DNA of 60,538 bases, filler included, from Hausera hauseri (taxonomy: Eukaryota), in NCBI GenBank assembly GCA_046269625.1. It is 11 parts of 11 records of this genome, joined end to end, with 100 filler letters (N's around TTAATTAATTAA, not from the genome) between each part and the next. Parts side by side here need not be neighbours in the genome. Positions count along the whole stretch, not along the records: positions 9,955 to 14,646 come from JBJURY010473799.1; 10 more parts are not named here. One strand, written 5' to 3'. Below, one piece after another: positions 291-24,306 of the stretch (positions are counted from its first letter, which is position 1; each line of letters begins with the position of its first letter). The position numbers and the translations under genes are program-made. The notes under the pieces are model-generated. The model made no database searches and was not told where the DNA came from. It saw only the letters and a list, made by a program, of their open reading frames with translations.

Positions 291-382
291 ACACAAATTT
301 TAAATTTGCGGAATTTTGTACTTGATTAGAAATTACAAATACTTTATTGGATTTACGTAATAATTGAGTAGAGAATAAAATA

Positions 383-2899
383 TTGACAGAAAACATAGAA
401 ATGCCAACTGTATATTTACATTTGATTATCATGACGAAATTAAAACGACAAATTATTAGACCAGTTAGTGAAAACAAATCACCATCAACAGAAGAAATAG
501 AACAGCAACTCTATACGAAATATTATCGACTAATCCTCAGATTAGCCACCCATAAAGAAATACAAGACATGACGAAATTCCCATTGAGTGAATATTCACG
601 AATTATTTACGACCATCCAGTATTCGATATTCCAACATTACTCGACATTTGTTCCATTTTTGCTGATGCTAATCCTGATGTTCTATCAAAACTTATTGTT
701 GGCCTATTCAAATGTCAACAAAATTTCATTGGAGACTTGATTGAAGTTGGGCAATCATTTATGAAATTTATGAAGGACAATATCATCGATCAATTATCGA
801 ATAATAACAGACAAACGGGAAATAAATTAAATGTACATTCATTGCATCATAATGACATCATAGGACATACCGAACTCATTGATTTACTGGCATACGTCAC
901 TGATGCAATTCGGTCATGGTACTTACTGTTGCGTTGTGTCCGTCCTGTCTATGCCACATACGATGGACTGTACCATGGAGGATTCCACAACTTTATCGAG
1001 TTATTTGTTGATCGAATTTGTCGAATTGCTTATGAACATGTGGACAAATTTGTCACAACTCATCCAGATAAAATTAAACAATTGCTTGTGGAATTTTCCT
1101 ATTACGGTGTCAGTACATGGCGATTGATTGTTGGTGGGAAATTTCTTGATAAATTCACTGGAGATCATCAATCAGCTTTATGTAGTAATAGGACAGAGGA
1201 GAATTTCGATTTGATCAATGAATATTTGGGTGTGTTACATGAGGTGCAGAATAATTGGGTGTTTGCTGATGCGATGAATGTTGTTTATCCATTACGTGAT
1301 GATGAGGATTTGGTGGTACGGTTTATTAAGATGGACAGGTTAGTTATTTGATAATGATTTATATTTTGATATTGGTTTGGTTTCTTGATTGTGATTTGGT
1401 GTGTGACTTTTTGTATTGTTTGAATTTGATTGGTTGGATTTTTTGATTGGCTGATCTTTCTGATTGGTTCGATTTTCTGATTGGTTGGACTTTCTGAATG
1501 GTTTCACTTTTTGATTGGTTGGATTTCTGATTGGTTTCACTTTCTGATTGGTTGGATTTCTGATTGGTTGGAATTTCTGATTGGTTGGACCTTCTGATTG
1601 GTTGGATTTTCTGATTGGTTGGACCTTCTTTCTGGTTGGTTGGACTTTCTGATTGGTTGGACTTTCTGATTGGTTGGACTTTCTGATTGATTGTTTTTTA
1701 TTGGTTATGTATTTCATTAAATTTTCATTCATTAATTTATCTTGTATTTATAAATTATTTAATCAGGTACGAATATTATCTGGACCATGTGCGGAGTAGT
1801 TTCGATGCATTATACAAAGAAATCAAATCACGGCAGTCAATATTTTCCATTAGTGAAAACTCATCAAACGATGATAATCAGCATGTTAATGATGACCATC
1901 GGCAATTAGCATCAGTTGCTGGTGCTGATGGCAATAATATTGACAATGAATGTGCTGAATTGCTGCAGGTGTTTGATGATTTGACTGTTGCTGATGTGCA
2001 GGTGAGGGTCTTGCATTTACGGTGGATGGGCAAATATTCCAGTCGTGAATATTTGCTCAATCTGTCTCTCATTTTCATCATCATTGCTAATTGACACGGG
2101 CATCATTTAGTCATATCTCCATAAATTCCAATGCACCGGCAAAGATCTGATGGAAGCATTGCTAGAAGGGGCCATCAGTACAGAATACGTAAAGGCTGTA
2201 AAACATGAGAATGATGTCGTCATTGGGTGGAATAATAATTTGCCAACTGAAATGTCCAATGGGGAAATGAATGAATTAATTAGAGAAAATCAGACGAATG
2301 ACCAATTGGTGATGAGTGGCAAACGGAATGAGCCATTTGAATTTCATGTTGATGCGGATCTGCATAGGGCGATTATGAAATGTACTGAATTACAGCAGCA
2401 GCAGGAGGGGGAGGGGGAGAAATGGATGATGAAACTGACATCAGAATTGTACAATGACGAATTTGATGATGTTTATGGCGTGGATCATGACGTTGCTGTG
2501 GACAGGAGGTTGGGATGTTGTGATGGAACTTGGTGTGTTAGTGGGAATGGATTCAGGATGGGTGATGAGGCAGGGCGTCAGCAGGATGATGAGGGGACTG
2601 AAGGTGGTGCTGATGCTGATGCTGATGATGGTGATGATGGCAATGCACAGAGGCTGGGCAATGAAATGGGCTGGCCAAATGGACATTTGCCGCTGATGGA
2701 ACCGAGTAAGGCACGACATAACACACAATACCACAGAAATCTGGCACTGAAGAAAGGCAGCAGCAACTGCAGAGTTCGTCATGAGCAGAATGACAACAGT
2801 CAGCAGCAGCAGCAGCGGCAGGAACGACGACAGCAGCATCATCAGAGGGCTGGCCAGCATCACAGAAATTTCAATCAGCACAGCAACGGTCGACGTTGA
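383..2899 (+). CDS. ASCC2: Activating signal cointegrator 1 complex subunit 2 homolog (CUE domain), spliced, probably 5'-incomplete
   Basis: LILRLATHKE...IIYDHPVFDIPTLLDICSIF matches the ASCC2 N-terminal domain. Two GT-AG introns join the three ORFs in frame: 1339-1766 (GTTAGT...ATCAG, phase 2) and 2002-2110 (GTGAGG...TTTAG, phase 0). Splicing rebuilds a CUE domain (AELLQVFDDLTVADVQ|SYLHKFQCTGKDLMEALLEG); YNDEFDDVY resembles the ASCC2 YEDEYDDTY motif. A possible acceptor AG at 458-459 suggests more exons upstream. Confidence 0.85.
1428..1692. repeat. Intronic minisatellite, about 15 copies of a ~17-bp unit GATTGGTTGGACTTTCT
   Basis: Directly visible tandem array inside ASCC2 intron 1339-1766; it accounts for the repetitive minus-strand ORF 1340-1732. 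Confidence 0.92.
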
Positions 2900-3495
2900 T
2901 TTTTGATTTTTTGGAATAAATTTTTTTTGTTTTTTGGTAAATAGTACACAGAATCATTGAATTATTATAGAAATCGTTATTAATTATTATGTTTAAATTT
3001 GAATTTATTCAATATTATTGATTTCATTATGAAGTATTACAATTTTCCCAAATTCTCATTCAATTGTTTCATTTATCATTTTACTTGATCAATTCATGTG
3101 GAATGACTGTTTATCAATTTTACTCATTCAATTCATCAATTGCATACTGCAGTAATTTACACACACTCACAATTTACAATTGCCAATTTCAATAATCCAC
3201 ATTTTACTAAGACTATGTTTATTAGTTGATTTGTATAATTCGTTTCAAATCATGGAATGTAAACAGTGAAAAATAATGACCTATTTGCATTAATGTCAGA
3301 ATAACATTTTCATAATTCCATTATAGAAGTTGGCCATACTCAAATAAATAAAAATCTCATCCTATCCCATCAAACATAAATGAGAACCATTACGAAACCA
3401 TTTGACCCTACAACATAGGAAAGTCAAACCAATCTATAAAACCAATAGAATATTGATATTCCAATTTCAAATTTCATCATTACTGATTATCAAAA

Positions 3496-4611
3496 ATGCA
3501 CTGCTGTAATTATGTTATCGAAGGAAGAAACATGGCGGAACAACTGTATTACCATCCTTGTCAACAACAGAGAGTAAAATTCGCAGAGAGTAAAAACCAA
3601 AACAACAAAAATTCTAAAAGACAAAAACGCAAACAACGAGAAGCCATTTTCCAAGAAGCCGATAAACCACCAAGAGATACTGGTGATGTCGAAGGGTCTG
3701 ATGTAATTCATGGTCAGATGCAGCAGTACTGTGTAAAAGGAGCTGACGTGATAATTCGACAAATCGAGTTCAGTAGAAATGATAAGAAAAGGACACTTGT
3801 AATCACAGTTGAAGGAAAGAAACCCCAAATGGATTTGTACCAAATTTTGTTGACAAAGAACATTTGTCCATTCAGTTTCAAGGATGAAAATGCATTTGTC
3901 ATAAAGGCATTGAATTTGCAACAGAAAGTAAAGAGCATGACATTCAAGGGTAATGACGAGGTGGATAAATACAATTGGTTGGAAAGATTCGGTATTGACA
4001 TTAATGATGGACAGAAATTGTTAGACAAATGTATTGAGGAAATAGAACGACGACGATTCCATCTGGGAATAAAGAAACGCCATGAAGAGAAAAGCAAAAT
4101 GAAAATTTCCTCTAATATTCTCATTGAATTGATCAGAGGTGGGGTCAAATGGGATTTTGACAACGAGAAGAAATGGTCGGTAACAAATTTAGAAAAATTA
4201 ATACAATTGCTATTAAATGAACTTGTTGAACCACTGATTCCTTACATCAATCAAAAAATAATCCGTCGACCTGATATAGGGAATTTTGATGCAACAAAAG
4301 AAGGACAAAAACTCATTAGGGTCATTCCATACAAGAACCGTATGATCCTCATGTCAATAACTGCCCATATGGAACGATTATCGAAATATTATTTGATCGT
4401 CATGAGTTCAGATAACAAGGATTTACCACAAATAAGACAAAATATTTGTAAGAGATTGACATCAGTTATATTTCGTCTACAACATGACGTTTGTGGTGAT
4501 GTGATATTTTCTAGAGCATCCAGTATTTTATACCATGTCATGATGTTCCATGTAAATTCAACTAATGAACGACCAATAACAAATTTTACAAATTCCATTC
4601 GAGATATTTAA
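3496..4611 (+). CDS. Hypothetical protein, 371 aa, single exon, with basic NLS-like stretch
   Basis: Long uninterrupted ORF in AT-rich DNA with ATG start and SKRQKRKQR. No family recognised. Confidence 0.55.
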   Translation: MHCCNYVIEGRNMAEQLYYHPCQQQRVKFAESKNQNNKNSKRQKRKQREAIFQEADKPPRDTGDVEGSDVIHGQMQQYCVKGADVIIRQIEFSRNDKKRTLVITVEGKKPQMDLYQILLTKNICPFSFKDENAFVIKALNLQQKVKSMTFKGNDEVDKYNWLERFGIDINDGQKLLDKCIEEIERRRFHLGIKKRHEEKSKMKISSNILIELIRGGVKWDFDNEKKWSVTNLEKLIQLLLNELVEPLIPYINQKIIRRPDIGNFDATKEGQKLIRVIPYKNRMILMSITAHMERLSKYYLIVMSSDNKDLPQIRQNICKRLTSVIFRLQHDVCGDVIFSRASSILYHVMMFHVNSTNERPITNFTNSIRDI

Positions 4612-4689
4612 TCCCATGGAATATCTCAATGTCGATGTTATGAATTTTTACGTGTGATTATTTTTGAAAATTCTATACGTTTGTTGTCA

Positions 4690-4737
4690 TGATCCCAGTG
4701 ACCCCAGTGACCCCAGTGACCCCAGTGATCCCAATGA
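4690..4737. repeat. 9-bp tandem repeat (TGACCCCAG) x5
   Basis: Directly visible at the end of contig 1. Confidence 0.9.
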
Positions 4738-4745
4738 AAATTCAA

Positions 4746-4845
4746 NNNNNNNNNNNNNNNNNNNNNNNNNNNNNNNNNNNNNNNNNNNNTTAATTAATTA
4801 ANNNNNNNNNNNNNNNNNNNNNNNNNNNNNNNNNNNNNNNNNNNN
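4746..4845. other. Artificial contig linker (N44-TTAATTAATTAA-N44), first of 10
   Basis: Identical 100-nt blocks with stops in all six frames at 4746-4845, 9855-9954, 14647-14746, 20442-20541, 27425-27524, 31652-31751, 38464-38563, 45637-45736, 51272-51371, 55412-55511. Adjacency across them carries no biological meaning. Confidence 0.98.
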
Positions 4846-6441
4846 GTATAACAATAAAAAGTGTTACCCTCGCGATTGCCGGATGCGTTTGACGAAACAT
4901 GAAGTGAATTTGGCCCGAGCCGTTTTCTTGGATATTAAGAATCGTATACCCAGAGCTCTAACGACAATTCCTTGGGAAAATAGTTTCGTGTCAATGTTTA
5001 GTAAGGACAATCTCAATTTGCTGTTTAGTATGTGCCGATTTGACTGTGAAATTACGCCAAAATATATTAGAAGATAGTCAGTAGTGCAGTGCAAAATGGG
5101 AATCACAAAACGATGATACCAAAGGTACAAATAGCTGTTACTAACATACAAAAATTCCATAATTAAGTGCTTCAAATTCTCATGGCATCAGATTCTACAA
5201 CATTTACAAAAGTCGTTAACAAATGGAATACTGTTCTTATTGGTTTGATGACTTATTTTAGAAAAGGTTTGTTTTGGAAAAAAGCTAACGGTTTTGAAGA
5301 ATCGATGAAGTATAAAAAATTGACTAGTGCCCAGCGTAGTGATCTGAACCAAATTCCGAATCGTAAATTTACATTATAGTGGTCACCAAATATTAATAGA
5401 ACCAATGTGTACGTTGGATTTCAAATTCAATTGGATTTAACCGGAATAGTTATGCATGGAAAGATTCTGACGTTGAAGGATTCATTTATTCAAATATTCC
5501 GAGCTCATCTGTGGCAAAAGGTCCACGAAACCACAAACCATTTTTGTCAAGTTTTGGATTAACATTTAGATTCTTTGGAAATTGACGCTGTTCAAAAAGA
5601 AACTATTCATCCCCGGAAATCATACAAAATGAATTCAAGTTACGCAGATATTTTACTGTTTGTTGCGTATAAATGGAATGTTTCTAAGCCTAGTTTATTG
5701 GTCGAATCAAATGACTTGACAAACGGAACTACTACACAAAAGTTCTGGATTGACGTGCAGTTGCAATGGGGTGATTATGATTTTCATGACGTTGAACGAT
5801 ATTCTGAGTTGAAATTTAACGATTATGTTAATGATGCTATGTTCATTTATCCATCACCAACTGGAGTTATGGTGGCAATTGATTTGGCATACAACAGCAA
5901 TTCTGCATACGAAAACAAGGTACCTGGTTTGAAGAAATTGATGCAGCGGACAATGACAAAAATAACGAAATTAAATCCCGCATTGTATGTATTGTGGGAA
6001 CATATTCGTAAAGCAGTACGGGTATATTCCAGTGAACCAACGGAACCTTACTTAAGTTCTTAGAATTACAATGAATTGTTCTTAAATCAAATTATATGGT
6101 TTGCTGATGATACGACAATCTGACTACAAAACTTATCAACAGAGCAATTTTTATATTCAACTCACGAACTAGACAATTATATTTGAAAATTATTCACACC
6201 TTAGTACGGTCAGGCCAGATACGTCTTGGTCAGTTAACCAGGTGGAAAATAGCGGAAGAAATAGTAGCTCTTATTCGATCAGTGCCTGTTGAAGAACAAC
6301 CGAAACAGATTATCGTTACAATAAATGAAATGTTAAATCCTCGCAAAGTGCACTTGCTTGATTTTTCCAAATATTATCATCAAGGGTAGCGAGTTACAGC
6401 TTCCATTACAAGCATGTCTTAAGGTAGAAAAATTTAGAGAC
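4846..6441 (+). pseudogene. PRPF8: PRP8 (pre-mRNA processing factor 8) pseudogene fragment, no introns seen, internally deleted
   Basis: [104 protein letters not shown] and [12 protein letters not shown] are all PRP8 motifs, with many stops and frameshifts. Confidence 0.95.
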
Positions 6442-7478
6442 GAACAATATATGATGTAATAATTAGGGAAATAGAAATAACACAAATTACCAAAAAAGTG
6501 ATAAAGATATATTTTCATTACATATATATAGTCCACGCACAAATGGGGAACATCGCCGTATACTTTTACCAAGGCACATAAAATCACAAAGAATCCAACA
6601 TCATTCACATATTGCATAATACCCATAAATTACACATTTTCATTAATTATAATTATTCAAATATTCCTAATAGTAATGACGAAAACAATTAACAAAAGTC
6701 GTGTTCCATTCTGTTTGTAATTTAATAAATGTTTCAGGCCGTTAAATTTTCAAAAATTTCTTTTATTGAAATACTTTAAAATAAAGAAATTTGTTAAAGT
6801 TGACTTACATATTTAACTTACCTGTTTTTGTTAAAAATTTAAGAAGTTGGGGTGGCCTACCAATACCTTTCACTGTTCAGCTTTCTCTTATAAAACAAGT
6901 AGATCCCTTATTTTGTTTCTAATTGTTTTAAACAGCATAATCCTCAATAACTGATTTATAACTGATCAACATATCCTGTTAATGAGGTCATTGTTGTGCA
7001 TATGTGACAGCAGAGTAACAAATGTGGTAGATTAGATTGGATTTACTACCCTTGTGAAGTTGGTAATGCATACGTAGTCGGCATATGTTAAACCACAAAA
7101 GTGATAAACGACATCCCTAACTAACATATCACATTTGTTGTACCCAGGTTAAGTACTAGTTTCCTTCTTAGATACACCTTCCTTGGTTTCCTTTTATGTT
7201 GAACTATGGTCGCATATTTTATGCAACTCCTGTAATATATACTATTACAATCATAAATTCAATGCGTTATACATATTAAACAATGAGTTAGTGTCTCGGA
7301 TTTTCAAAAAATATATTCCATGCAATTTGGAGAGCGAAAAAAATTTGACCCGAGTCAATACATTCATGTCAAATACGGCTGATTAATATTTTTGTCTACG
7401 TCTTTAGTTTTGTCGAAAATCAAACCTGCATTTATAATTTGTATGCCAACAAATAAAGCCACATTGTTTAATAAAATA

Positions 7479-9244
7479 CCGTAAATCTTTAAAAGAAAGC
7501 CGGGCGGAATTTCAAATCGACCCCAAAAAATCAGGCGTTAACTCGAGGTGGAAGACTGTTTAAGGCCGGTGGAAGAATGCTTTCACATATGCCCAGATTA
7601 CTTCATTGTCAATTTAGTCATCTGTACATATAAAAATTCAAGAACAGCTAGGTACAACATACACGCATAAAATATAGGTATGTTTCACAAAAAATGTCTC
7701 AACATAGATTAATTATCATCGTCAATAACTATTTCATTGACTTCATTCTGCTTCTCATCAATTTCCTCTGCCAAGACATTTTGATCGACTTCATAAAGAT
7801 TCTGACGATGCTCCAGAAGGACGTTCCAAGTTCCTCGGCAAGCTTGACCCTTCTTCAAGCAATGAATCCGATCGTCTTTGGAACAGTCGAACTCAACACT
7901 TAGACCGACTGATTTGAACGATCTCCGAATTAATTCTGCCGGCAGATTATTCTATGATTCTAAAATCCATTGCAACAGTAAATGCTTGTTAGGAGGCTTT
8001 ATATTCCCGCTTAACGTAAATTCCATCGCATTGTCAGATGCTAACCAGCTTCTCATAGTTATTTCGGGCTTGAAAATATTCTGTACACACCTTGGAACAA
8101 CTACAGGGCAAACATTAAAATGTTTTTGTGTTTTAGTTGTCTGTGAAATATGACACCTGTAGCTGTCCCATGCTAAAATAGGTTTGCCAAAGTTCAACTT
8201 CCCCTATATACTGTCCAACCACTGACATGTAGTGTCATCATTCATCCATCCATTCTTAGTTGACATGACCTTCAACCCAGGAACATCATGCAGAGCCTTC
8301 ACTTCTCTCACTGCTCCCTTGAAAACTACAAATGGCTTTAGTTTGCTCCCTTTCCACCTAATACTACTGTGAAATTAGCCTTCTCGTTACCGATTGAACG
8401 GATTCAGATGGTGAATGCCCCGCGTTGATCCACAGGCACATTTGAAATCATGTTAAAAACACGGCAGTTTCATCCATTGATACGATATGTGCGTTCTGGA
8501 TTTTATATTCTTTTTAAATTTCAGACAAAAATGCGATGTATAATACGAATTTCTCTAGGAGAGCTTCCGGTTACCGTTTGAAAATCCATTCCTGTTAAAA
8601 AATTTTGTAACCCCCTTGACTGGCTGAAAATATCTGCACAGTAGAGTCATTGAGTGCCTCATTATAAATATTGAGTGCCTTGACCTGAATCATTTTTCGC
8701 GAAACACAATTTCCTTGCGCTCTCATGTCCACTATCCATTCCACTACCTGATTATCCAAGTCTTCGCTAGTAATTCTACTGCCACCATTTGGTAATTTCT
8801 TTCTTATTGACGGCAAGTGAATCAGTCGACAGCTGAGCTAAAAGTAGTTTTAAAAATGTAAACAATTAACTTTTGTAATTTTTTTTACACTAAAAATGAT
8901 TTTACTTACTTAATTCTTGCTTTTGGGTTTTGTATTCCCTGACGCGTTTTGAATCAACAGAAAATTTTCCTGCTGCTGCCTCGTTGCTACTATTTTCGGC
9001 AAAATTAACTGCCTCTAACTTTAATTTTAAACTAAATGATCGTTTCGACATTTTAAATGTTGTCTAATAACACTCAACAATTAATATTGCAATTATAACA
9101 AATTTGCATTACGATTATGATCACAGACATTTAGAATTAAAATGCATCATGATGCTCAATTGCACCGCATATTACCATTTTTGATTCGGCGTTAATTCGA
9201 GGCCGGCATATATTCAAAGTAGGCGTTCGTTTCAGCATTTACGG
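7479..9244 (-). mobile_element. Degenerate pogo/Tigger-type DNA transposon (CENP-B HTH + DDE transposase)
   Basis: Termini TA|CCGTAAAT (7479) and ATTTACGG|CA (9244); motif GGCGTTAA(C/T)TCGAGG near both ends. ATG at 9051 (MSKRSFSLKLKLEAV), CENP-B-like LDNQVVEWIVDMRAQGNCVSRKMIQ, SMDETA, ILAWDSY; frameshifted. Candidate 72-bp GTAAGT...TTTTAG intron at 8838-8909. Confidence 0.82.
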
Positions 9245-9954
9245 CATATTATTAAAGAAAAGCACATATTTTAACACTCCATATACTGAGTAAATGAAAT
9301 ACCACGCAAAAAATATGAATTTCAATTTCCAATTGTGACAACTTTATTAGTCATGTTATGAAATATTAACAAAGGGGCGTATAGTTCTTTAAATTCTTAA
9401 AAATCCGAAATTGATTTTTTCGTTATTTTTCGACACTCACGGAATTAGCCAAACACAATATTTACCAAAAGTTTTTATGCATTTATTGATCAACACTATT
9501 TCGATTATACGTCAAGTTGCATTCGACAGAACAATAATAAAAAATTAATTATTTTTATAGTAAATCCACTAAAATTTGAGACTTAATTTTTTTGATAAAA
9601 ATTATAATTCCGTTGCTATGAAATAATAGCATAAAATTTACATTAGAGACAAATATTTTTAGCTTTATGTTTATATATCGCATAAAGCATGATAATAGTA
9701 GGGAGAAAATGGGGATTCGGGCACAGACCCCCCCCCCGGGGGAGTTGGATCGATAAATCGATATTGCACATGCGCCAATCGATAGTGCACCCGGAACACT
9801 ATCGATCCATAAAGTGCTAGGCAACGGTTCCGTTTGGCACCGTTGCTAGGCACANNNNNNNNNNNNNNNNNNNNNNNNNNNNNNNNNNNNNNNNNNNNTT
9901 AATTAATTAANNNNNNNNNNNNNNNNNNNNNNNNNNNNNNNNNNNNNNNNNNNN

Positions 9955-12900
9955 ATTTTATAGATCTCTTCCAGTATCGTCGCTTCTTGTTTCTTCTTCA
10001 TAAAATTAAGTCGTCGTAATGCTTCGAATCTCGTTCGGATATCTATTTTTGCTGGTATCGTATCTAAATTACGTGCGCTTTCTTCTAACTGTTTCTTTAC
10101 AGAAGTCTCGCTTTCTGGAAATTCCTTCTTTCGGTTTTCTACTAATTTGCTTAATCGCATTACTAATTCGGACCATTCTGACAATTGATTTGCGATTATT
10201 GGCTTTGCCATTATAGCCTTACCTAGCATCTTATATGCAACTTTTAACTCATCGTCTGGCACTCTTAGAAAATTCATAATCCTGCCGACATAACTATACT
10301 CGTCCTTATGTTTGCCCAATTCTACGATACAAGCCTTTACTACGTATTGAGTCTCCTCATGGTTTGGGGACAAGATTCGGTTTTTCAAACTATAAATTTG
10401 TGTTCGCTTTTCATTTTCCATTTTAAATCAACTTTCTAGATTCGTGTGCTGTTTAGGTTCAGAGAAAGCGATTTTTATCATCTCCATTAAGGAGGAATAT
10501 CTACTTGGTCTATACCCAATATTTCCAAATCGATATTACTTCAATGGTTCTCAATTGTTAGTGTGTAGTTTGGTATTCTGGAAGGTTTTTAACCTTGGAT
10601 TGTCCCAAATTGTTGATCTAGTTTCTATATTCCGAGGTTCTCTCGGAAAATACCACATCCTGGGACCCTCTGTGGATTGTTGGTAACACATTTTCCGTAG
10701 GATCCTGTAGCGTTTCGTTCCTTCATAATGTTCTTCTACATTAATTGTTCTTTTATAAACCTCCGTCTTATATGAACTCATTGATCGTTTGTCGAATTCT
10801 TCATAGATTGGAGCAGTAGGAGGCAGCATAGGCAATGGCGCTTTAATAACATAGTACATCTTATGTCTGTTTATTCGTGAAAGTACTTCTCCTCCCTTAG
10901 GCTTGTCATCATCTAAATTATTTCTTCGTGTATTAGGTTTTGTACATTTCCGCTTTTGCAAGAATATAGGACTTCCTTTTCGTTTAGGATTATAATAACT
11001 GACGTGGCATTCTACGTCCGATTTCCATTTATTTTTTTCGTATGCCTTTAAGAATTTTACAAAAGGCGTTATGATCGCAGTTAGTATTTTGCATAAAAAT
11101 CCAGTCAACATAAATATTTCATACCCATTTATTACTGCTTGGATGACTGCTTTAATCATTTTGTATCAGAAAATATGTCGCTAAAAATTCGGATGCAGCT
11201 TGTCCGAAAATCAAGAATCGTCCCCAAATTTTATAGAGTATTTTGGTCGTTACTCACTGATAATGGTTTACGCCAAGTAGAGATTCCCATTTATCCTGAT
11301 ATCGTGAATCTTCTACTACTGAGGCCATGGCTCGGTTTAATTCATGTGTTCGTTGTCGCGGAAAAGCGAGGATTTGTCTGAAGACTTCAATTTCCTTAGG
11401 CCTGTATATGCCTTTCGACGAGGTGTCTTAAAATTTATCGCCCGTAATTCCTTTTGCAAGGTTTGTTCCAGTTAATTTATTTGGAGCGGCAATGATACCT
11501 CCATTTGGCAAACTAACACAGTCTGTTTCACTGCGCCTAAACATGGGCTTTCCTAAGCTTGCCTTACAGTCTCTAAGGATTGTTGGTTGGATTGCATTGT
11601 CCAATAACACTCTCGTCAACGGTGTAGCTAACCTGGGAGTATTTTGATAAATCACAGGAAGTTTCTGAATGCAACGTTTTTCTTCCACGTTAATGAGTAC
11701 ATCTTTTTTTTCGCATTCATAGGTTAGCAGTACTTCGCCTTGAACCCGTCCGAAAATTTCCTTTTTTATCGGAATTATTGGCGAAGCCAGTCCTGGTTTG
11801 GCGTATATAAGGGCGTGTTTCATCCTCATGATCTCGTTATTTAATTTACAGTCGTTCGTTATCATTTTGTGATATAATTCAGTTATTCCGACTTGCACTT
11901 TGTAATAGAAGTAGTCATCTCGGTTTTTCAAGTAATCCTCAATTCGGCCATACTGTGTTTCTAGTTTCTAAGTCTTCGCATTTATTTCCGTTTCTGCGAC
12001 GAAAAAGGCCTCATAGTTAGTGGCGAACATCATTACGTCACAACGAGAAATCATTTCTTTCTTAATACATTTTAGTCCGTGCTGATCAGAGATTAAAATA
12101 GTGTGTGTAAGATGTTCTGATACATCCTTGCGTGTCCTTGAGTTGGTATCTGATTTATCCACATATCGTTTTCCAGCAGTCTCAATAAACTTCAGTTCCT
12201 TAATTTTAATAAAGTTACAACTTCTTCCAATGGGCGGTTTCCATATTATACCAGAACTTCTAAAAGCACAGGTTCCATCTTGTTAGTGGCACTTTTGGTT
12301 TTTAGTATATAACTTGGTGACACCATGGAACATTACTTTCTGTGATCGCATCTCTGATTCGTAGAAATCCACGACTACCACATTTGCTTGTAATCCTTTT
12401 CCAGTGTCGTATTTTGCTCCGTAACAATGTCCGCTATGCATATATAACCTTCCGACCACTATCTCGTACGCCCTAATTATCTTTCCTGGCTGCATTTCCA
12501 ATTGCATACTATCCCATTGTATCCTTGCAGTCTCCTTGACTTGTTTGCAGTGCTGGCGTTCTAGATTCATTGGGATCAGAGGAGTTGTTGGTTTGATTAT
12601 TGAGGAATGTCCGTGAACTAACCCACAGTGAAAAATGCTACGTGATTGTCTCAAAATGCATTCCATTCCATCTAACGATATCAGTTTTTGTTGTTGGTAC
12701 AAGAAGTATTTTTCCTCTCTTGGTTCCAACTTGTGTAGTCTGGCATCTTCGCACACTTCTAGATCCATTAGGGAATATCTCTGCCCTAGTTTAAACTTAT
12801 CGCAGTCGTAGACGGTTACAGGGCCTATATGCTTTATTTGCATCATCAAGGTAAGTAGGCTGATTAACCGATTTAATTCATTAGTCCGATAGCCAACATC

Positions 12901-14646
12901 CGCTGTTGTTAAATTTCGTAACATATCGCCGAGTTCATCACCGGTCCGTCTGTCCTCTTCCTTGTCAAATAGTCTTGACCAATTCACTTTGCAGAGCAAT
13001 TTTTTCGCTGAGTTTTGTGCTAAGTATATAGCTCTATTGATTTCATTCGCTCGATTAAGGTTTATTTTGATAGCTAAGTATAGTAATACTTTTCTCAATT
13101 CCTCGTTGGTGTTTTCCACCATGATCTTTTTGATTACCGATTTGTCGGATAAGTTACTTTTTGATAGTTTAAAACGTGAACTTCGCATCACTCTAGCTGC
13201 ATCGAATATTATCTTTTCTTTATCATCTAATACATCACTTCGAAGGCTCGAATAATTTACAATTCGTATTAAATTCTTTATTAACTCACTTAATTCCTCA
13301 TTGTTTGTACTGAGAGTCGGAATCGACATCTGCCTCACTTCTCTAATCAATTCTTCATTATAGTCCACTTCATATCTCATTTTCTTAGGCCTGCCAACTG
13401 GGCGTTTCGGCCTTTGGTCTTTAGTGGTTAGTTCACTGAGTGGTACTAAATTTGTATCGTATTGTTCCTTATCTTCATCTGTTTGTAAATACTCGAAATA
13501 CATTGCAGCGTCTCGGACTCCCATGATTTATCCTACGCATTGTTCTGCCTTGGCCTTACCTGTAGCCTCTTCTTTTGTTTGTTCGTTCGCCACTATTGCT
13601 ACTATCCGATTCGTTTCGTCGGGAATAATTCCGACGTCTATTAATTGTTCTAGATCATCAAGAATTCTACCTCTAAAGTAAAATCTCTAATTAAGCTCGT
13701 TTGTTCCGCCGTTATTTAATAACCATTCTCTTACGGCCCTTACATAGAAATATGTAGTTAACTCACATTCTTTTTTGTCCATCCACTCGGATGATTCCAT
13801 TACTTTCATCGCTACCTCAGGTTTAGCCCTCAAGATTTTAACGTATTTCTTAATCAAAAGTTTCGGTACCGTGACATAAATTGTGTTCTCACTAGATAAT
13901 TTCGTTAATGTCGGAATAAGTTGTCTTAATTTACTTTCAGAAATGTTTACGTTAATTAATTCGATTAAGTCTTTTTCAGATAGCGCTGAATCCAGGAGCA
14001 TCACCACATTGAATCTTCTGTTCTGCGGACATGTTTCTATCTTATTTAGTTGCACTGGAGTCACTAGTTTTTCGGAAAATATTGCATCTAAGTATGCATC
14101 CCATTCGGGGTCGTTTCCAGCATCTGGAAATCCATAGTCTACTAAGGCTGCATTCGTTCTTTTCACATTTTCTCAAATTTCTTTTAATCTGGGTTGTATT
14201 TCCTTCATTTGCGTAGTGCGGAAACCTATTCCGTTTGCGCAGGCATACTGAATCATTTTCAGTAATTCACCTAATTCATTAGAATTGATGAGTACTATTT
14301 GGTGATAATCTGTTAATTCAATAATTGCATCTTTTTGCCATCTTTGTACAAATTCTCGCTTATTTTTGATTTCTGATTCGGTAAAAGCATATTTGTTTCG
14401 GTAAATCTCGAATTCTTTTGCTAGTTCATCTAGTCTCGTTGCTCTTTGTTTTGCTCTGATACATATTTCTTCTACTTGCTGTAATTTGGGCACCAATTGC
14501 CTCATCTTTTCGTCATTAATCACCGCCATTTCTACCCATAAGTACATTTTATTTATGAGTTTTGAGTCAGGATCCATCGCATCCAACAATTTCCATATGA
14601 ATTTGGATTCCTGAAAACTAAGATGTTGGTCATTTCTTATCTTTAT
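9955..14646 (-). pseudogene. Decayed viral/retroelement polyprotein spanning all of contig 3
   Basis: ORFs starting 14589, 14166, 13524, 12162 and 11931 share one frame, open to the contig edge and broken only by isolated stops (14173, 13687, 13528, 12283, 11968, 11428, 11254). After one frameshift near 11160, ORFs 11159 and 10421 share the next frame. Confidence 0.75.
11040..12870 (-). pseudogene. Chuvirus-like (Monjiviricetes-type, class III / gB-related) fusion glycoprotein
   Basis: Hydrophobic segment, then VTVYDC..YSLMDLEVC, LYQQ..C....R.IFHCG..GHSS, GHCYGAKY...NVVV, GRVQGEVLLTYEC, RCIQKLPVIYQN..LATPLTRVL, KGIY, IWGRFLIFGQ..IKAVIQAVINGY. This cysteine and motif order is typical of chuviral G and its retroelement-captured homologs. 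Confidence 0.82.
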
Positions 14647-14759
14647 NNNNNNNNNNNNNNNNNNNNNNNNNNNNNNNNNNNNNNNNNNNNTTAATTAATT
14701 AANNNNNNNNNNNNNNNNNNNNNNNNNNNNNNNNNNNNNNNNNNNNGCTGGCAGATATA

Positions 14760-15260
14760 CTGAGGATGAAGTCGGAGCACCTATGGACTTGTCCAGTGTG
14801 TAATGATGATGACCTGACGACTAACTAACTAACTAACAAGGCAAGACATGCTTTTATGTCACAAAGGAACATGAAAAGATCACAGTCTCAGAACTCAAAC
14901 CAAACATCACATTTTTTACTCCTGTGTAAAACCAGTATTACTTTATGACACAGAAACATGGAAGAACTTAGGGACTGTGGCACACAGACAACAAAAATGT
15001 GTAAATAAATGCTTAACGCGAATACTTGGAGTTGGTTGGTCAGACACCATTTTAAATGAAAGTCTGCTAGAGAAGCTAAGGCATGACCTAGTCATGGACC
15101 AGATCAGAAAGAGGACATGGAAGTGGATAGGACATACACTACGCAGAGAGTAAGATAACATTGCCAGACCTGCGCTATAATTGAACTTCATTGGACAGGG
15201 GAGTATCGGGAGACCAGTGGCAACCTAGAGAAGTTAAAGCAACAGATACATTATGGAGCG
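14760..15260 (+). mobile_element. RTE-like non-LTR retrotransposon 3' fragment, degenerate
   Basis: Translates as YDTETW...VNKCLTRILGVGWSDTILNESLL...QIRKRTWKWIGHTLRR...IARPAL...GRP, the conserved C-terminal tail of RTE-clade ORFs. Confidence 0.75.
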
Positions 15261-16194
15261 AGATAAAGAAAAATGCTTTGCACCATCAGAGGTTGGTTGT
15301 TGTTGTTAGTTGTAGATGTTTCTGTCACTGTGAGTAGGAACCCTTGGCAGTTGGTTCGACCATTATCTTTCTCTACAAGTGCAGACAATGCAGTCACCTT
15401 CCAATAGCTTTGACGCATCCCGGTCCCCATATAAGGGCATGGGTCCCACTTTTACTGGAAATTCGCAGTTCTCCTTCTGACCTGGGGAGATATTGTTGAC
15501 TGTGTAGTGATCCAGAATTTCTTCAGTTTCTCTTTGAATCAGAAAACTCCTCCTGGCATGAAGGCATCAGCAGAGAGAAGCTGCTTGCCCAGAGTTTCAC
15601 TTTATTTTTCAAACCAAAAGCTAAACAGATCAGTACCTTCCCCATTTACTGGCAAGGTTTATGGACTAAGTTACTGAAGTAAAAAAGGGAAAAGGTGAGA
15701 ACTCATTGCATCTTTTCTTCAAAGCGAGAAAATTAAATAAGCCAACAGGAAGGAGAATAGCTGAGGTGTTACAATATCTTAAACTCTCCACAGTCCAGAA
15801 TGAAAGGGTAGCAAGGCCAAAACCAAACCATTGTTCAGGATTCAGAAATATGCATTGACCAAGCAAACCTCTGTGCAATGGCTAAGAGATGTTTTCTAAA
15901 AGTAACCAGAAAACAATTAAATCCATTCTTCAAAGTTTTATTTTAATGAATTCTCCTGCTCCATATGAACGTTTGTCGCAAGCAATATTCCAATCTATCA
16001 AAAAACTAGCTTCGTTTACTCTGTCATCTTCACGATTAAAAGAAGACAACCCAGCAAACACACACCCGCTGGCGATGTACCTTACCAGTGCCTTCATGCC
16101 GTCACTTCTGGTACCCGGCCGTTACTGGCTTCAAGTAACGGCGTCGTAACTAACGTGTCCAACCCGGCGCAACCGGCCCATCAGTGCGGGGAGA

Positions 16195-16287
16195 CACTGG
16201 CACTGTACCGGCTCTCGGGGCACATCTACAGTAAAGGCACTGGCACTGTACCGGCTCTCGGGGCACATCTACCGTAAAGGCACTGGC
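16195..16287. repeat. 43-bp direct tandem duplication within a GC-richer patch (16050-16460)
   Basis: CACTGGCACTGTACCGGCTCTCGGGGCACATCTAC(A/C)GTAAAGG occurs twice. The patch begins CCCAGCAAACA at 16050, similar to animal EnSpm/CACTA-type ends (tentative). Confidence 0.8.
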
Positions 16288-16492
16288 CCAGTAACTTTGC
16301 TATACTGCTTTTTTGATGGTAACGTACTGTGCCAGTACCCAAAAGCCGTCACTTCTGACACTCCCTTTCCGGCTCGAGGGCACCTGAACGATACTTTTTA
16401 GGTACTGGCATCCTGCAGTTCAGGTACCGGAGTTTTAACGGTATTATTTAACGTACACTGCCCCAATGACTTTAATGAAAAATAAAATTATG

Positions 16493-17009
16493 GAGAGGAT
16501 GCTGAAATTTTTATTACTTTTAATCATATTATGAAATTAATTGCACGAAACTTACTGTAAACTCTGTGGAACTTGAAAATATAAAATGTTTGAAAAAACG
16601 AGTCTTATAAGAAAAACAAAAGGTTTTCATAAAATACTTACTTAAAACTAAAAAAATTAAATTACTTCACAATTATGATTTAACATTATTTGATTTGATA
16701 ATCATAAAATTTACAGGATATTGGGCATGTTAAGCTCAGTTTCAACAAGCTAGCATGCCAGTAACCAAATATCCTGTTAATTTTAGGATTCTCATAAATC
16801 AAATAATGTTAAATTATATAATTTGTGAAGCGATTTAATTTTTAATATAAAATAAGTACTCTATTAAAATTTTTTGTTTTTATTTATATCAAGTTGTTTG
16901 AAAGATTTTATATTTGAAAGTTCCCCTGAGTTTACAGTAAATTTTGCTTACCTGATTTTTTAATATATGATTAGAAAAGCAATAGAAATTTCAGAGTTAG
17001 CATCCTCTC
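16493..17009. mobile_element. Foldback / MITE-like element: ~517-bp imperfect palindrome with ~230-bp arms
   Basis: GAGAGGATGCT...AGCATCCTCTC termini. Internal blocks pair in inverted order: TTACTGTAAACTC/GAGTTTACAGTAA, TTTAACATTATTTGATTT/AAATCAAATAATGTTAAA, ACAGGATATT/AATATCCTGT. Confidence 0.85.
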
Positions 17010-17662
17010 AATGTTTTTTTTCCCGTTTCCAGATGGTATTCATGAAATTAATTCTCAGCAAGTCCCCTCCCTCAATTGCTAAAACTTTCTATTTAAGCAT
17101 GCTTTGCACATTATTACTATTTAGAATTCTGAAAAAAGCAGTGACCAACCCTCCAAAACTTAGAACTTATATTCAGTTTCTTTCAGATCTGTCACTGTCA
17201 TCTCAGCAGAAAATCATTTGACTTTACAGTTTCCTTTAAAATTCTACTATTTTAATATAAAAATGACATTTATTTTCTTGCATTTTCTAGGGGGGGGGGG
17301 AAGTTTGCTATAAATATATATTTGGAAAAAAATTAAAGGAACCATAAAAATTAACATTTGTGATAATGAAAATGAGTCCCAATTTTTTTTTATACAAAAG
17401 CAGTTATGTCTTGCTACCTTCTAAACGGTAGTGCCTGCCAGTGAAATTTTTTGTTTCTTATATGTTGAAGAACTATGCCACTCTCAAGTGCTAAAACAAA
17501 ATTAAATATCTGGCATATTTTTTTACATTAATAATTTTGTAAAAGAACAAAACATATCTTGACTATAATATAAATGACATAAAGCACTGATGCATAAATA
17601 CATATAAACAAGATTAAACATTGAATATACACCATAAATACTCGAAAAAGAAACAAAAAATT

Positions 17663-17711
17663 CCTTACGAGCCCGTTTCAAGAGATTAATTATATCTCCC
17701 TTCTTCAGAGG
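17663..17711 (-). ncRNA. Minimal type I hammerhead ribozyme in the Penelope 3' region
   Basis: Minus strand reads CCT-CTGAAGA-AGGGAGAT(ATAATTA)ATCTCTT-GAAA-CG(GGCT)CG-TA-AGG: CUGANGA and GAAA core, stem II, short stem III, GUA cleavage triplet, CCT/AGG stem I. It lies 130 nt downstream of the PLE stop. Confidence 0.8.
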
Positions 17712-17841
17712 TTAGTGCGACACGCAAAATGGCGTTGATCACACGGAAGCAAACATATAAATAGTGAGAATGACCGTTGCCAACGTGGAAAGCGAAAAGA
17801 TAGTAAATAAAAATAGCCAATAAGAAGAAAGGGGGGAGGAG

Positions 17842-20091
17842 CTACAGAGACCCATGGAGTAAATATTTCCAGGCGCTATGTAAAAAGGGCGTGGAAGTAT
17901 CGTCATTAACCAGGTTACTAGAATTCTGCATGATAGAATAAGATTCAAGAACATCCAAATGGCCAACAGAATTAGGCGTGCATAAAATTTTTGCCTTGGA
18001 AAAATTAAAACGATGTCCAGAATTCCAACAATGAGTAGCGATAGAAGATTTAGAAAGCTCCTGATTGGAAATATACCTTTGATGCTCTTTCAGCCGAAAT
18101 TTGAGAGCACGTTTAGTTTGGCCAATATAGCCAAGATCACACTCACAAGGAATAAAATAAACACCCCAACGATTTTCAACAGAAATGGGATCTTTAGGTG
18201 AAGAAAACCTAAGTTTATTAACAGGTTTAAAGACAACTTTGAACCCGAAACGAGAAAGTAAATTGGAAATTTTGTAACAGAAAGTGGAAAAGAAAGGTAA
18301 AATGACAATATCAGAAAAGTCAGAAACAACACCACGGGAAGGATTAGGTTTAGAAAGCTTAGAAACGGCCTTCGAAATAATAGAAGGATCATACCCACGA
18401 GACACAGCAAGAGATTTAAGATAATTCAATTCGATATGGAGAGACGATGGATCGGAACAAAGTTTAAGAGCACGATGCACATAAGTGTAAAAAGCAGACA
18501 TTTTCTGCTTATGAGGATGATTGGAACTAAAGTGCGGAGGCAGAGAAACAGCGAAAGACTTTCTATAGACAGACGTGGCGAAACGATTAGGTTGTTTCGT
18601 AACCAAAACATCAAGAAATGGTAAAGAATTGTTGGACTCTTCTTCGAGAGTGAACTGGATGCAAGGATCAATAGAATTTACAACCGAAAGCAATACTGCT
18701 AAATCAACCTTAGGATGGACTAAAACGAAGGTATCGTCAACATATCTCATCCAAGAAACAAAATCAAACACTTTAAAAAGCTTTTCTTCAAAATAATGCA
18801 TGTAGATATCGCAAAGTATAGGAGAAAGGGGGTTTCCCATAGCCAGACCCTCAGTTTGTTTGTAGAATTTACCATTAAAAATGAAAGCAGTTTGTTTAAC
18901 ACAAACCCTAACCAAACTAAGAAATTCCTCAATTTCCACAGAGGAATAATGGAATTCACTTAATCTTGAACCTAAACAAATGATAGCACCCTCAACAGGG
19001 ACATTAGTGAAAAGAGATTTGACATCAAGTGAAAGCATACGACAGTTAGAAGGATTCATGTTATTAATTTTTTTGACAAAATCATACGAATTTTTCACAG
19101 TGTGAATATTATTAATAGTTAGAGGGGAGAGCGTGCGTACGAGAAAGCGGGCAAGATTGTACGAGGCAGTGCCAATATTCGAAACAATAGGACGAAAGGA
19201 GAGAACGGGTTTGTGGATTTTTGGAAGGGCATAAAAGCGAGCACAGTTAGCAATAGACGGGATAACAGATTTCTTCGTGGACACATTTAAAATAACACTT
19301 TGTTTAACAACGCGTTTGATTTCATTAAGATGAGAATTAGTGGGATCGGATTTTAAGAGAGAATAAGGTCCAGAAGATAACATGTTATCAACAGAAGAAA
19401 CATAAGATGATTTATTCATTAAAACAGTTTGACCGCCTTTATCGGCTTTAGTTATAAGCAAGTCCGGAACAGAATTTAACTCCTTAAGAGCCGACTTTTG
19501 GGAGTGGGAAAGGTTTGATTTAGAATTTAAGTTGTTAGACGAAATAGCATTTGCTAGAAGGTGACGTAAAGTGTCTTTTTGGCCAGAAGAGATTTTACTA
19601 TGTTTAAAGGCATTTTCAATAGGAGCAATTAAATTAGGAGCCGAAACATTACGCACACGGGAAAAATTTAGACCTAAATTAAGAACATCCTTCTGACTGT
19701 CAGTAAGAATATGCGAGGATAAGTTAACAATAGTATTTTGAGACAAAGGTTGAAAATTGTGAGAACTAGAACTATTGGAACTTACAAGAGCATTAAATTT
19801 CCTTTCTAAAACGAATCTATGGGAAACCGCCAACTTTTCAACATAAGCAAAACTGTGTTTTTCCCATTGAGAAAACTCCGGAACAGCATCACTCAACAGA
19901 AGATGTAAATGAAAAAGTTCAGATTCAATATCAGACAAACGATGTCGAACGCCTTTAATCACGGCGCGTAAGACCGAACACCTAGACCTATTCAAAGCTA
20001 TATTCGCACGAAAAGAAAAAGTAATATATTTCAGTGAATTGAACTTTAAATGGCATTCTCTTGCATGTTTGTTTGAAGACCTGTGGAACAT
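17842..20091 (-). mobile_element. Penelope-like element ORF (reverse transcriptase + GIY-YIG endonuclease), uninterrupted 749 aa, probably 5'-truncated
   Basis: ITKADKG, FYALPKIHK..FRPIVS, LSLDVKSLFTNVP, GLAMGNPLSP, RYVDDTF, LPFLDV, and GIY-YIG motif GVYFIPCECDLGYIGQTKRALKFRLKEH. Confidence 0.95.
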
Positions 20092-20161
20092 TCATGCCTT
20101 CCAAATTTTTTCTATCTTCTGACTTGTCTGGAGTCCATTTTTTAACCATTCTCCCCTTCAG

Positions 20162-20331
20162 TTCTACAGAGCCTTGAACATCAGGGTGGCTCTGGTGGGT
20201 CTGGAGGTGTGGAGCGACTCTGACAAATGCCCCGTCACTCAGGATCCCTTCACCACTCTGCATGAGTTCCTAGACTGGAGGAAAGTAAAACTGCTGCCCC
20301 AGAAGCCTCACGACAATGCGCAGCTCATAAG
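20162..20331 (+). CDS. ADAM12: Single internal exon of ADAM12 (metalloprotease domain), vertebrate/teleost-like
   Basis: Flanked by CCCCTTCAG| and |GTGAAC. Encodes FYRALNIRVALVGLEVWSDSDKCPVTQDPFTTLHEFLDWRKVKLLPQKPHDNAQLI, close to vertebrate ADAM12. Not in the supplied ORF track. Confidence 0.85.
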
Positions 20332-20541: not shown

Positions 20542-21825
20542 AGTATGGACAGTATTTATCGGAAAATAAACCAATTGTTATTTATACTGACCACAAACCA
20601 CTACAATGGCTAAAGAGTCATAAGAATCCAAATAGTCGTTTAATGAAATTAGCAATGTTACATCAACCATACGAATTCAAGTTCAAATATAAAACTGGTA
20701 AGGCTAATGCAAATGCAGACTATATGTCAAGAATACCAGATGACATAGATCGAGAGGAAGAAATAACAGATAAATCAGGTGTTATAGCAGCTATTTGGAG
20801 TATCACGGAACACGAAAAATCGTTGCAACAAAAACAACACAACGATGAACGAATCCTCCAAAAGAAAATCATACCAAAAGAAATTGATCTTCACGCTCAT
20901 TTAGTAAAGTTTGCCGAAAATTATCAGACGAAAGATGGTATATTATACTACAATTGCAAAGGAAAATTGGTCGTTGTTGTTCCCCAAGAAGAAGTAAAAC
21001 TATTGCTAACACAGTACCATGATGGTATGTTGGGAGGACATCAATCAAAGAAGCGAACCATAGGCAGATTAAAAAGAAAATATTATTGGCATAATATGCT
21101 TAAAGATGTAGAAGAGTGGTGTAAAAGTTGACCCATTTGTGCTACAAGGAAGAATACGGGAACAAGAATTAAAGTCCCCCTTAAACCATTGGAATGTCCA
21201 CCAGCTCCAATGGAATTTTCGGCGATGGATATCATGGGACTTTTGCCAATAACGATAAATGGAAATAAGTATATGCTAGTGTTTGTCGACTTATTTTCCA
21301 TATGGTCAGTAATAGTTCTGATACCAGATCAGAAGGCCGCCACTATTGCTCAAGTATTCGTTGAAGAAACCGTATTTAATTACGGAGCGCCCACCAAACT
21401 ATTGACGGATCAAGCTCCAAATTTCACAGGAGAAGAGATGACAGAGATATAAAAAATATTTCAAGTATTACAATTGAAAACTACTCCATACTATCCACAG
21501 ACTAATGGAACAGTCGAGTGATTTAACGAAACATTAACTAACATGTTAGCAACAATGGTTAATGAACGACGGGACGACTGGGACGAATACATTAAACCCT
21601 GTCTGTTCGCCATTAGGAATACGATCCACCCTGCAACCAAAGTAACCCAATTTTATCTAATATACCTGAGGAATACTAATATGCCAATTGATTTGGATTT
21701 TAAGGTATCAATTTCACATTTAAAAGACATAAAATATAAAGAAATACTAGAAGAAAAACCAAGTTATGTGTGGAATTTGGCCTCACGAAACATAAAAATA
21801 TGCCAAAAAGAATATAAAGATAGAT
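20542..21825 (+). mobile_element. Gypsy/Ty3 pol fragment (RNase H end + integrase), degenerate
   Basis: IYTDHKPLQWL, KYKTGKANANADYMSR, HHCC region YHDGMLGGH...WCKS*PIC, AMDIMG, LLTDQAPNF, YPQTNGTVE; internal stops. Confidence 0.9.
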
Positions 21826-22850: not shown

Positions 22851-23997
22851 GAAGGTGTAGTAGGTGAAAAGTTATTGGCAGAGATAGGGGTGGATTTTTG
22901 AAGGAGTATAACAGATTTTGGTTTCGTGGCGGTTTTATCCGTGGTGTCGACGAATTCATGCCACCACGGATGCGGAAGTGTATGTGGAGATGGGTATAAG
23001 TTGAAGAAGATAGTAGGGTTCCGGAGATAGGTACTGTGGAGCCATTGTGCATGATGTAAAAGTCAGATGAGCGACGAAAAGTGGTTATGACGTTGTGGGT
23101 AGCTGCAGTGTTTAAGTGTGTTAGTGCCGTTGTGTAAATGTTTGTTATTTAAAAAAAAGAAGGAATACGGTGTGGTCGTGTAGCCAGGGGCGTGTCCTGG
23201 GGCGTCAGCGAACGGTGCCGTCTGACCCAATGGCATAGGGTGGGCGGCCGGAACTTCAGCCTCATCGCGGCGAATCCCAATCTTCAGGTTGACCGAGCTC
23301 CACGCAGAAATGGTAGGTCTGGGACGCGTATTATCGGGCGTGTATATTTGACAACTATTAGAATTACACAGTTTCACAGATAAGGTATAAATATGTGCTT
23401 TGCCCGTTTGTAAGACCCGAATGTTCTCTCGTAGTGAAATAGGAAATGTCAAGAATCGCGTTTCAACGACCGGTAAAATGGGTGCAGGATGTCAGACTTC
23501 ATCTGTAATATGTTTGTCAAGAAGTGTAGCTACAATTTGGGCGTATTTTTTGCTGTAAGAGTTGAGCGCTGAGTATCAGGGACTGTGGTGTCACTGTTGT
23601 TGGCTTGGAGGACATATTGATCGCTCGAAAGTTTTACTTCTATAGATGATCTTTAACTATGTATGTACATTTTATAGGATATGTAAATGATAGGGACCAG
23701 GTATATGTATTGTGGCGATAAAGCAATATTAGCTATGAGTAGAAGGCTAACATCTTTACTATGTATAATATTTTTGACTTTTTGGTCGTGAAATATTAAA
23801 AGAAGTCTAGTGGACCCTGATTTCAGACCGCTGACTAACATGATAAAATGTATGGAATGGATAAAAGGAAATCCTTTTATTAATTTATAAATGACGATCA
23901 GTATTACCGTGTTCCGTTGCATATTACCCATTGCTGTACATTGCCGGCGAATATCCTTGATGTATGCGTCTGGCCGCCGGCGGATTGCTGAATGTGC

Positions 23998-24306
23998 ACT
24001 CAGCAATCTCAGATCACCTAGTTCTTTAGGCGTATAGAAAACAACTGGAGAAAATCTAGCAGGTGTTTTTGAATTCAGACCGATCTTTATACGCGTTTGT
24101 ATTTTATTCTCGCACTTGACAAGAAGGTGCGACAGTTCCAGTGTGCCTATAATTAGTTCTCTAAAATAAGTCATCAAAGCGATAAGAGCAGTATTTCGAC
24201 AATCGCCAGGCCAGCATTTTTTATTGTTATACCCAACAATGTTTTCATTATCCGGATCCGGATTCTCGTTTAAATAAGGCTGAAGCAAATCCCGAGCCTC
24301 TTCAGC
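23998..24306 (-). pseudogene. PRPF8: Second PRP8 pseudogene fragment, internally deleted
   Basis: [37 protein letters not shown] is fused directly to [13 protein letters not shown]...[33 protein letters not shown]. Confidence 0.92.

Follow-up and report, generated by a model that had tools for sequence, protein, structure and literature searches.

Burro (GYPSM1) elements are giant gypsy-like long terminal repeat (LTR) retrotransposons of dugesiid planarians, in which they reach thousands of copies (Arkhipova and Yushenova 2019, PMC6431247). The first open reading frame (ORF1) of Burro encodes 4,873 residues with Gag, MATH, SUMO-like, BIR, ankyrin and BCL2-like domains, and an env lies in frame between the BCL2-like domain and the protease; in some elements, the accessory domains form separate ORFs (PMC6431247). 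The Burro env matches fusion proteins of arthropod and fish mononegaviruses, and Dugesia japonica contains decaying Burro fragments with stops and frameshifts (PMC6431247). A second described system comprises the Ty3/gypsy "ancient errantiviruses" with a chuvirus-like, gB-type ENV, which show the gene order GAG-ENV-POL in flatworms, nematodes and bryozoans (Chary and Hayashi 2026, PMC13524379). Furthermore, a chuvirus G is present in the mosquito BEL/Pao element Anakin (Dezordi et al. 2020, PMC7642597), and nematode Mavericks encode the gB-like fusogen MFUS-1, a stand-alone protein of 866 residues with an N-terminal signal (Widen et al., bioRxiv 10.1101/2022.07.12.499685). Our analysis concerns a stretch of 60,538 nucleotides from the Hausera hauseri assembly GCA_046269625.1 (the window), which consists of 11 short contigs joined by N spacers; its positions 9955-14646 are one complete contig. 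This contig represents an incomplete, inner part of a repeat with many copies, and it encodes a class III fusion glycoprotein (G) within a long frame. We estimate a probability of roughly three in four that it comes from a Burro-like Ty3/gypsy LTR retroelement of the type GAG-(accessory domains)-ENV-POL, carried by a free-living flatworm. Since the contig itself has neither Gag, Pol nor LTRs, membership in the gypsy group is suggested by the likeness of G, the copy pattern and the layout. The layout is likely an already published one, and the contig a new, distant example of it and not a new kind.

A preliminary description of this DNA had noted a long frame with 7 stops, a frameshifted continuation, and open ends on both sides of the contig, all of which were recovered. 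On the minus strand, frame A (14646-11155) spans 1,164 codons with 7 internal stops, against about 86 predicted by base composition (Poisson p ~2e-28); frame B (11165-9957), offset by one base, continues for 403 codons with 3 stops, compared with about 30 expected (p ~5e-10). Both frames have a codon-position bias of the coding type: guanine occupies 28% (A) and 23% (B) of first positions, and 15% and 16% of second positions. The stop deficit and this bias rule out a chance open frame.

The glycoprotein had been placed inside the frame, about 590 codons in and behind a signal-like stretch, and this placement is borne out. The Pfam family PF24664 (Monjiviricetes_fusion) matches frame A residues 595-1162, with X at the stops, at E 9e-43 and 146.6 bits (curated cut-off 27 bits; profile positions covered 6-562 of 653), so that G does align with a class III fusion profile. 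Residues 594-612 form the only 19-residue window of frame A with a hydropathy above 1.3, and their mean of 1.37 is marginal. Because frame A has no membrane anchor after the ectodomain, and because a strong hydrophobic segment occurs at frame B residues 14-40, the frameshift likely falls inside G. Five of the seven frame-A stops look like lesions: four (12285, 11970, 11430 and 11256) sit within the PF24664 match, at one of which about 99% of the aligned depth in the public run X1 differs from this copy, and the stop at 14175 is aligned across by a natural homologue, P0003. G is thus internal to at least 1,560 near-open codons, with five stops outside G to which this lesion evidence does not extend. 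With its 10 stops and its frameshift, this copy is dead and unable to make the polyprotein.

The copy pattern was examined in X1, which contains 53% of the sampled words and may itself be the origin of the window, with contigs aligned at a likeness of at least 80%. A total of 15,709 contigs match at 80-100% identity over all 30 of 30 bins, flanks and G alike (606 at >=99%, 2,076 at 95-99%, 5,874 at 90-95% and 7,153 at 80-90%). The summed depth per bin ranges from 2,077 to 20,297, and the depth of the eight longest pieces from 4.5 to 8.8; neither depth nor contig count equals copy number. Transitions account for 914 of 1,213 variable sites, 40 of which are displayed, and 86 joints mark rearranged copies, with 14 of the 15 displayed joints being skips, i.e. 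deletions. Because many distinct, diverged contigs cover flanks and G alike, the repeat appears to be a large family of genomic copies in decay. A one-off or single-copy viral insertion is ruled out, as the whole stretch, flanks included, is multiplied in X1. None of the listed X1 contigs spans the stretch or extends it usefully, and locus scans for longer copies among viral and metagenome contigs yielded nothing confirmed. At the 11160 shift no indel row is listed among the X1 copies, which by itself proves nothing.

For the affinity of G, ENV domain I-II rows of the PMC13524379 supplement were compared by eye (101 of 229 rows, including 15 of 124 insect and 33 of 36 nematode rows). Among these, the six Schmidtea mediterranea rows (Smed_errantivirus_1-6) look most like G, and the rows from nematodes, bryozoans, branchiopods, tunicates and mosquito BEL elements look less alike. 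According to a hand count over domains I-II, about 60 of 208 residues (29%) are identical between G and the ENV of Smed element 5, with three one-residue gaps outside one common long variable loop; one hymenopteran row reaches about 20-22% by the same kind of count. The Platyhelminthes C1a ENV group has an identity range of its own of 27.4-63.7% (PMC13524379). A motif scan of G found three of three planarian-type and none of three insect-type motifs, all defined post hoc; the planarian-type motifs occur in 70, 13 and 0 of 5,000 shuffles, which overstates their significance, the motifs having been written after the sequences were seen.

The Smed elements have 45, 215, 3, 8, 1 and 1 near-identical copies, and LTRs within 3 kb were called for none of the six (PMC13524379); the latter would be compatible with an origin of the six as inner sections of giant elements. 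In 30 of 55 rows of the same source, the counts of ENV matches adjoining POL are 253 (Schmidtea), 51 (Macrostomum), 20 (Girardia), 15 (Prostheceraeus) and 5 (Dugesia), against 0 or 1 for each parasitic flatworm among these rows (PMC13524379). From these counts, the carrier is likely a free-living flatworm. The contig itself has a GC content of 37% and a CpG observed/expected ratio of 1.09, i.e. it is without CpG depletion. Both properties match planarian traits. Across the 11 contigs, CpG observed/expected lies between 0.41 and 1.09 and GC between 34% and 54%, and given this spread more than one organism may be represented in the window.

In line with the preliminary description, the flanks of G resemble neither gag, pol nor chuviral N or L: no Gag, Pol, N or L profile of Pfam matches them. 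The 593 upstream codons show no Gag profile, zinc knuckle or integrase, and their frame continues beyond the contig. Behind the anchor of G, 363 codons or more extend to the contig end without a Pol motif; the C-terminal segment (9957..10493) has no protease, reverse transcriptase (RT) or zinc-knuckle motif, and since X1 copies vary in length near 10420-10500, the frame there is insecure. The contig consists entirely of coding frame, without an LTR-like repeat; its longest repeats (<=33 nt) are at chance level. A search of Rfam with the whole window gave 0 matches.

Homologues are scarce. A full HMMER search covered the N-terminal flank, and for this 595-residue query P0003 is the only match among 1.84 billion protein representatives (E 8e-18, 38%); it is a singleton on a 2,157-base ENA contig, and Atlas look-ups with P0003 and with the last open stretch gave no usable lead. 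Word-based searches found no homologue for G alone (2,243 candidates scored), for G residues 895-1075 (362 candidates, E up to 1) or for the whole of frame A (7,999 candidates scored); such searches require shared exact words over limited lengths, and an empty result does not show absence. A PDB sequence search with frame A gave 0 matches. A single-sequence AlphaFold model (pLDDT, the predicted local distance difference test, 29.5; fold matches with TM-scores <=0.10) is too poor to judge a gB-like five-domain fold of G.

The order of Burro predicts a BCL2-like domain ahead of G. A motif resembling Bcl-2 homology region 2 (BH2) is located about 285 residues ahead of G and is a hint only of such a domain. 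Its core was found in 1 of 20,000 shuffles, a figure that overstates significance, as the pattern was written after seeing the sequence. No Pfam family matches the candidate, and a PDB sequence search gave 1 chance match only; the best fold match of its single-sequence AlphaFold model has a Z of 4.5, with no Bcl-2 row, and the model is poor (pLDDT 35.5) and excludes nothing. The tail behind the anchor has a PTAP motif, presumably a candidate late domain for the endosomal sorting complex required for transport (ESCRT). This motif appears in 95 of 20,000 shuffles, again an overstatement of significance for a pattern written after the sequence was seen.

Features of the contig at 9955-14646, with positions along the window
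Feature	Position	Strand	Basis
Whole contig, an inner piece from a single decayed copy (many-copy element)	9955..14646	-	Frames and repeat coverage; without LTR-like repeat inside
N-terminal flank of 593 codons, helical by prediction, with 3 stops (14175, 13689, 13530)	12868..14646	-	Translation, Pfam, homologue search, fold model
Helical segment, residues 34-184, one natural homologue (P0003)	14095..14547	-	HMMER
BH2-like motif at residues 298-314, possibly left from a BCL2-like domain	13705..13755	-	Post hoc motif
Short basic proline-containing stretch, residues 405-425	13372..13434	-	Sequence
Internal signal-like hydrophobic segment, residues 594-612, directly before G	12811..12867	-	Hydropathy
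Class III (chuvirus / gB-type) fusion glycoprotein ectodomain, 4 stops (12285, 11970, 11430, 11256)	11161..12864	-	PF24664; published ENV rows; motifs
One-base frameshift zone, likely within the membrane-proximal part of G	11152..11168 (near 11160)	-	Frames, hydropathy
Predicted membrane anchor at the C-terminus of G (residues 14-40 of frame B)	11046..11126	-	Hydropathy up to 1.89
Basic low-complexity tail with PTAP motif (10803-10820)	10791..11045	-	Frame B sequence, motif scan
C-terminal segment running off the contig	9957..10493	-	Sequence, motifs, Pfam
Stops of frame A	14175, 13689, 13530, 12285, 11970, 11430, 11256	-	Translation
Stops of frame B	10553, 10538, 10430	-	Translation

Several points weigh against a Burro-like gypsy element. 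The contig shows no Gag, protease, RT, integrase or LTR by profiles, motifs or repeats, so that a link to gypsy Pol is not visible on it, and no BIR, MATH, ankyrin, SUMO-like or BCL2 family of Pfam matches it, in difference to Burro. The likeness to planarian ENVs is one seen by eye and by post hoc motifs among 101 of 229 rows, in a sheet whose categories do not include free chuvirus G. In the BH2-like motif, the final tryptophan of the consensus is missing, and the sole BH1-like motif lies 250 residues away on the wrong side. Stops 13689 and 13530 and the three of frame B fall outside the lesion evidence, and an ATG follows 2 codons past 13530. Finally, the Burro env has also been tied to gypsy Env and to F-type proteins of paramyxoviruses and baculoviruses, and this description does not settle its class (PMC6431247).

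A bolder interpretation, which we regard as unlikely, is a new lineage of giant enveloped retroelements with accessory domains other than those of Burro, or an undescribed enveloped mobile element outside gypsy as the carrier. It would include a degenerate apoptosis regulator, an ESCRT late motif on the Env tail, and about 950 flank residues with a single relative in 1.84 billion proteins (tested for the N-terminal flank). In its boldest form, a non-gypsy carrier would have been multiplied to hundreds or thousands of copies. The preliminary description had likewise proposed an undescribed enveloped retroelement or virus with a large accessory/env polyprotein. An enveloped retroelement is likely, given the flank profiles and the many-copy repeat; "undescribed" does not hold for the layout, as the in-frame env of Burro (PMC6431247) and the GAG-ENV-POL order of flatworms (PMC13524379) are published, and a free virus is unlikely given the repeat pattern. 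Our literature searches found no description of this particular family; Repbase and the figures and GitHub sequences of PMC13524379 lay outside them, and the latter two may contain the family or its flanks.

It is rather improbable that the same type of element is present without a single polyprotein, i.e. with one or more upstream accessory genes and an env ORF that begins at the ATG past stop 13530 or ends at the stops near 10550. Such separate genes would agree with the accessory domains that are ORFs of their own in some Burro elements (PMC6431247), and for stops 13689, 13530, 10553, 10538 and 10430 copy-specific evidence is missing among the 40 of 1,213 variable sites displayed. The three pieces nevertheless lie in one frame across two stops, for which point decay of a single ORF is the simpler explanation, and the other five stops of frame A behave as lesions.

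Still more doubtful is a conventional gene order, GAG-POL-ENV, as in a BEL/Pao element of the Anakin type or in gypsy; the contig would then be the 3' env region, and G would follow the integrase. Chuvirus-like G is known from mosquito Pao (PMC7642597) and insect gypsy elements (PMC13524379), and the same Pfam family would match; yet the 593 codons ahead of G carry no profile or other signal of integrase or Pol, as the order of Anakin would place there, at least 363 codons follow the anchor, and insect-type motifs are absent (0 of 3).

There is very little to recommend the fusogen region of a Maverick/Polinton or another DNA-virus-like element. Nematode Mavericks do possess a gB-like fusogen (bioRxiv 10.1101/2022.07.12.499685), and protein-primed DNA polymerase B pieces occur on another contig of the window (28896-30970, plus strand), together with an endonuclease VII match, in a Maverick/adintovirus-like association. 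MFUS-1, however, stands alone with an N-terminal signal, G is an internal domain here, the polymerase contig has no DNA or protein match to 9955-14646, and the best visible relatives of G are gypsy ENVs.

Just as improbable is an origin from an unusual RNA virus, jingchu- or mononegavirus-like and with a polyprotein, of which an endogenised piece was later spread as cargo by a non-autonomous element; the same holds for a diverse population of free viruses in X1. PF24664 is built on Monjiviricetes glycoproteins, the ENV comparison set is without free chuvirus G, and X1 is a run of unrecorded kind, but the flanks, which differ from the layout of Jingchuvirales endogenous viral elements in being in-frame coding sequence without N or L match, are multiplied together with G, and stops, frameshift and many deletion joints do not suit a replicating virus.

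For a functional member of the presumed Burro-like family, we propose the following model. One very long polyprotein would be made, whose first part (Gag, predicted off the contig, then accessory domains, one of them possibly BCL2-like) would remain cytosolic. The internal signal segment would thread the G ectodomain into the lumen of the endoplasmic reticulum (ER), and the anchor behind G would stop the transfer, so that the polyprotein would cross the ER membrane twice. The PTAP tail and the downstream part would thus return to the cytosol, with protease, RT, RNase H and integrase predicted past the contig end. Signal peptidase and the element's own protease could cut the parts free, and PTAP might recruit ESCRT-I for budding, by analogy with retroviral late domains. 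Enveloped particles bearing G would then bud and deliver the RNA to other cells or the germ line; there it would be reverse-transcribed and integrated, adding copies.

Some of the other contigs of the window also contain mobile elements. The contig at 31752-38463 has a GC content of 54% and a composition unlike the others, and its three long open frames, of 529, 862 and 1,278 residues, overlap; one of them has matches to RT, RNase H and an adenine methyltransferase-like domain, another a weak match to a tyrosine-recombinase SAM-like domain, and the contig looks like a DIRS-type retroelement, seemingly intact. At 17842-20091 (minus strand), an unbroken RT frame of 749 residues reads like a Penelope-type element. 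Decayed gypsy-type Pol pieces (RNase H, integrase zinc finger and integrase core) are located at 55804-57912 and 43315-43830, both on the minus strand. A decayed PRP8 piece at 23653-24603 (minus strand; U5 small nuclear RNA binding site 2, E 4e-28) is likely a retrocopy, and its contig also contains gypsy-type RNase H and integrase pieces at 20544-21128. At 1-4745, two 17-bp tandem arrays (1-304 and 1427-1693) lie beside intron-free-looking frames, one with a weak RhoGAP match.

The contig adds a distant example of retroelements with a class III fusion protein inside one giant polyprotein; few animal groups are known to have this layout. The topology predicted here, with internal signal, ectodomain, anchor and a cytosolic PTAP tail, suggests how one frame could yield Gag, Env and Pol and target them to a membrane. 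Because the flanking domains are nearly absent from protein databases, such elements are easily misread as unknown viruses. Among known systems, the Maverick fusogen MFUS-1 is likewise a class III gB-like protein of a mobile element; it is a stand-alone gene of a DNA element, whereas G is an internal domain. As Sacco et al. reportedly found in 2022, nematode endogenous retroviruses have a continuous gag-env-pro-pol ORF. According to PMC13524379, Env is upstream of Pol in the nematode metavirus, and the 33 of 36 nematode ENV rows compared look much less like G than the planarian ones. Anakin shares a chuvirus-type G multiplied by a retroelement, and differs in its BEL/Pao backbone and insect-type G motifs; giant flanks are not described in the available part of PMC7642597. 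Troyka was rejected as a lead, as the available part of PMC12440569 contains nothing on this layout.

Burro was compared by its published description. It exceeds 30 kb in total length and has AIR1, SMC, MATH, BIR and ankyrin domains, in contrast to 4.7 kb without any such profile here, and Gag, Pol and LTRs would lie off our contig. Shared with Burro are a viral fusion protein, probably in frame within a giant polyprotein and among accessory domains, glycoprotein matches of the mononegavirus type, very many copies, and decay by stops and frameshifts; one motif on the contig also hints that a BCL2-like domain may precede env. With Smed_errantivirus_1-6 of the C1a group, G appears by eye to have in common the cysteine spacing, the three group motifs and the long variable loop of ENV domains I-II; it stands at the distant edge of that group, and this copy is decayed. 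The internal position of ENV on the contig is the one expected from the gene order of the GAG-ENV-POL errantiviruses.

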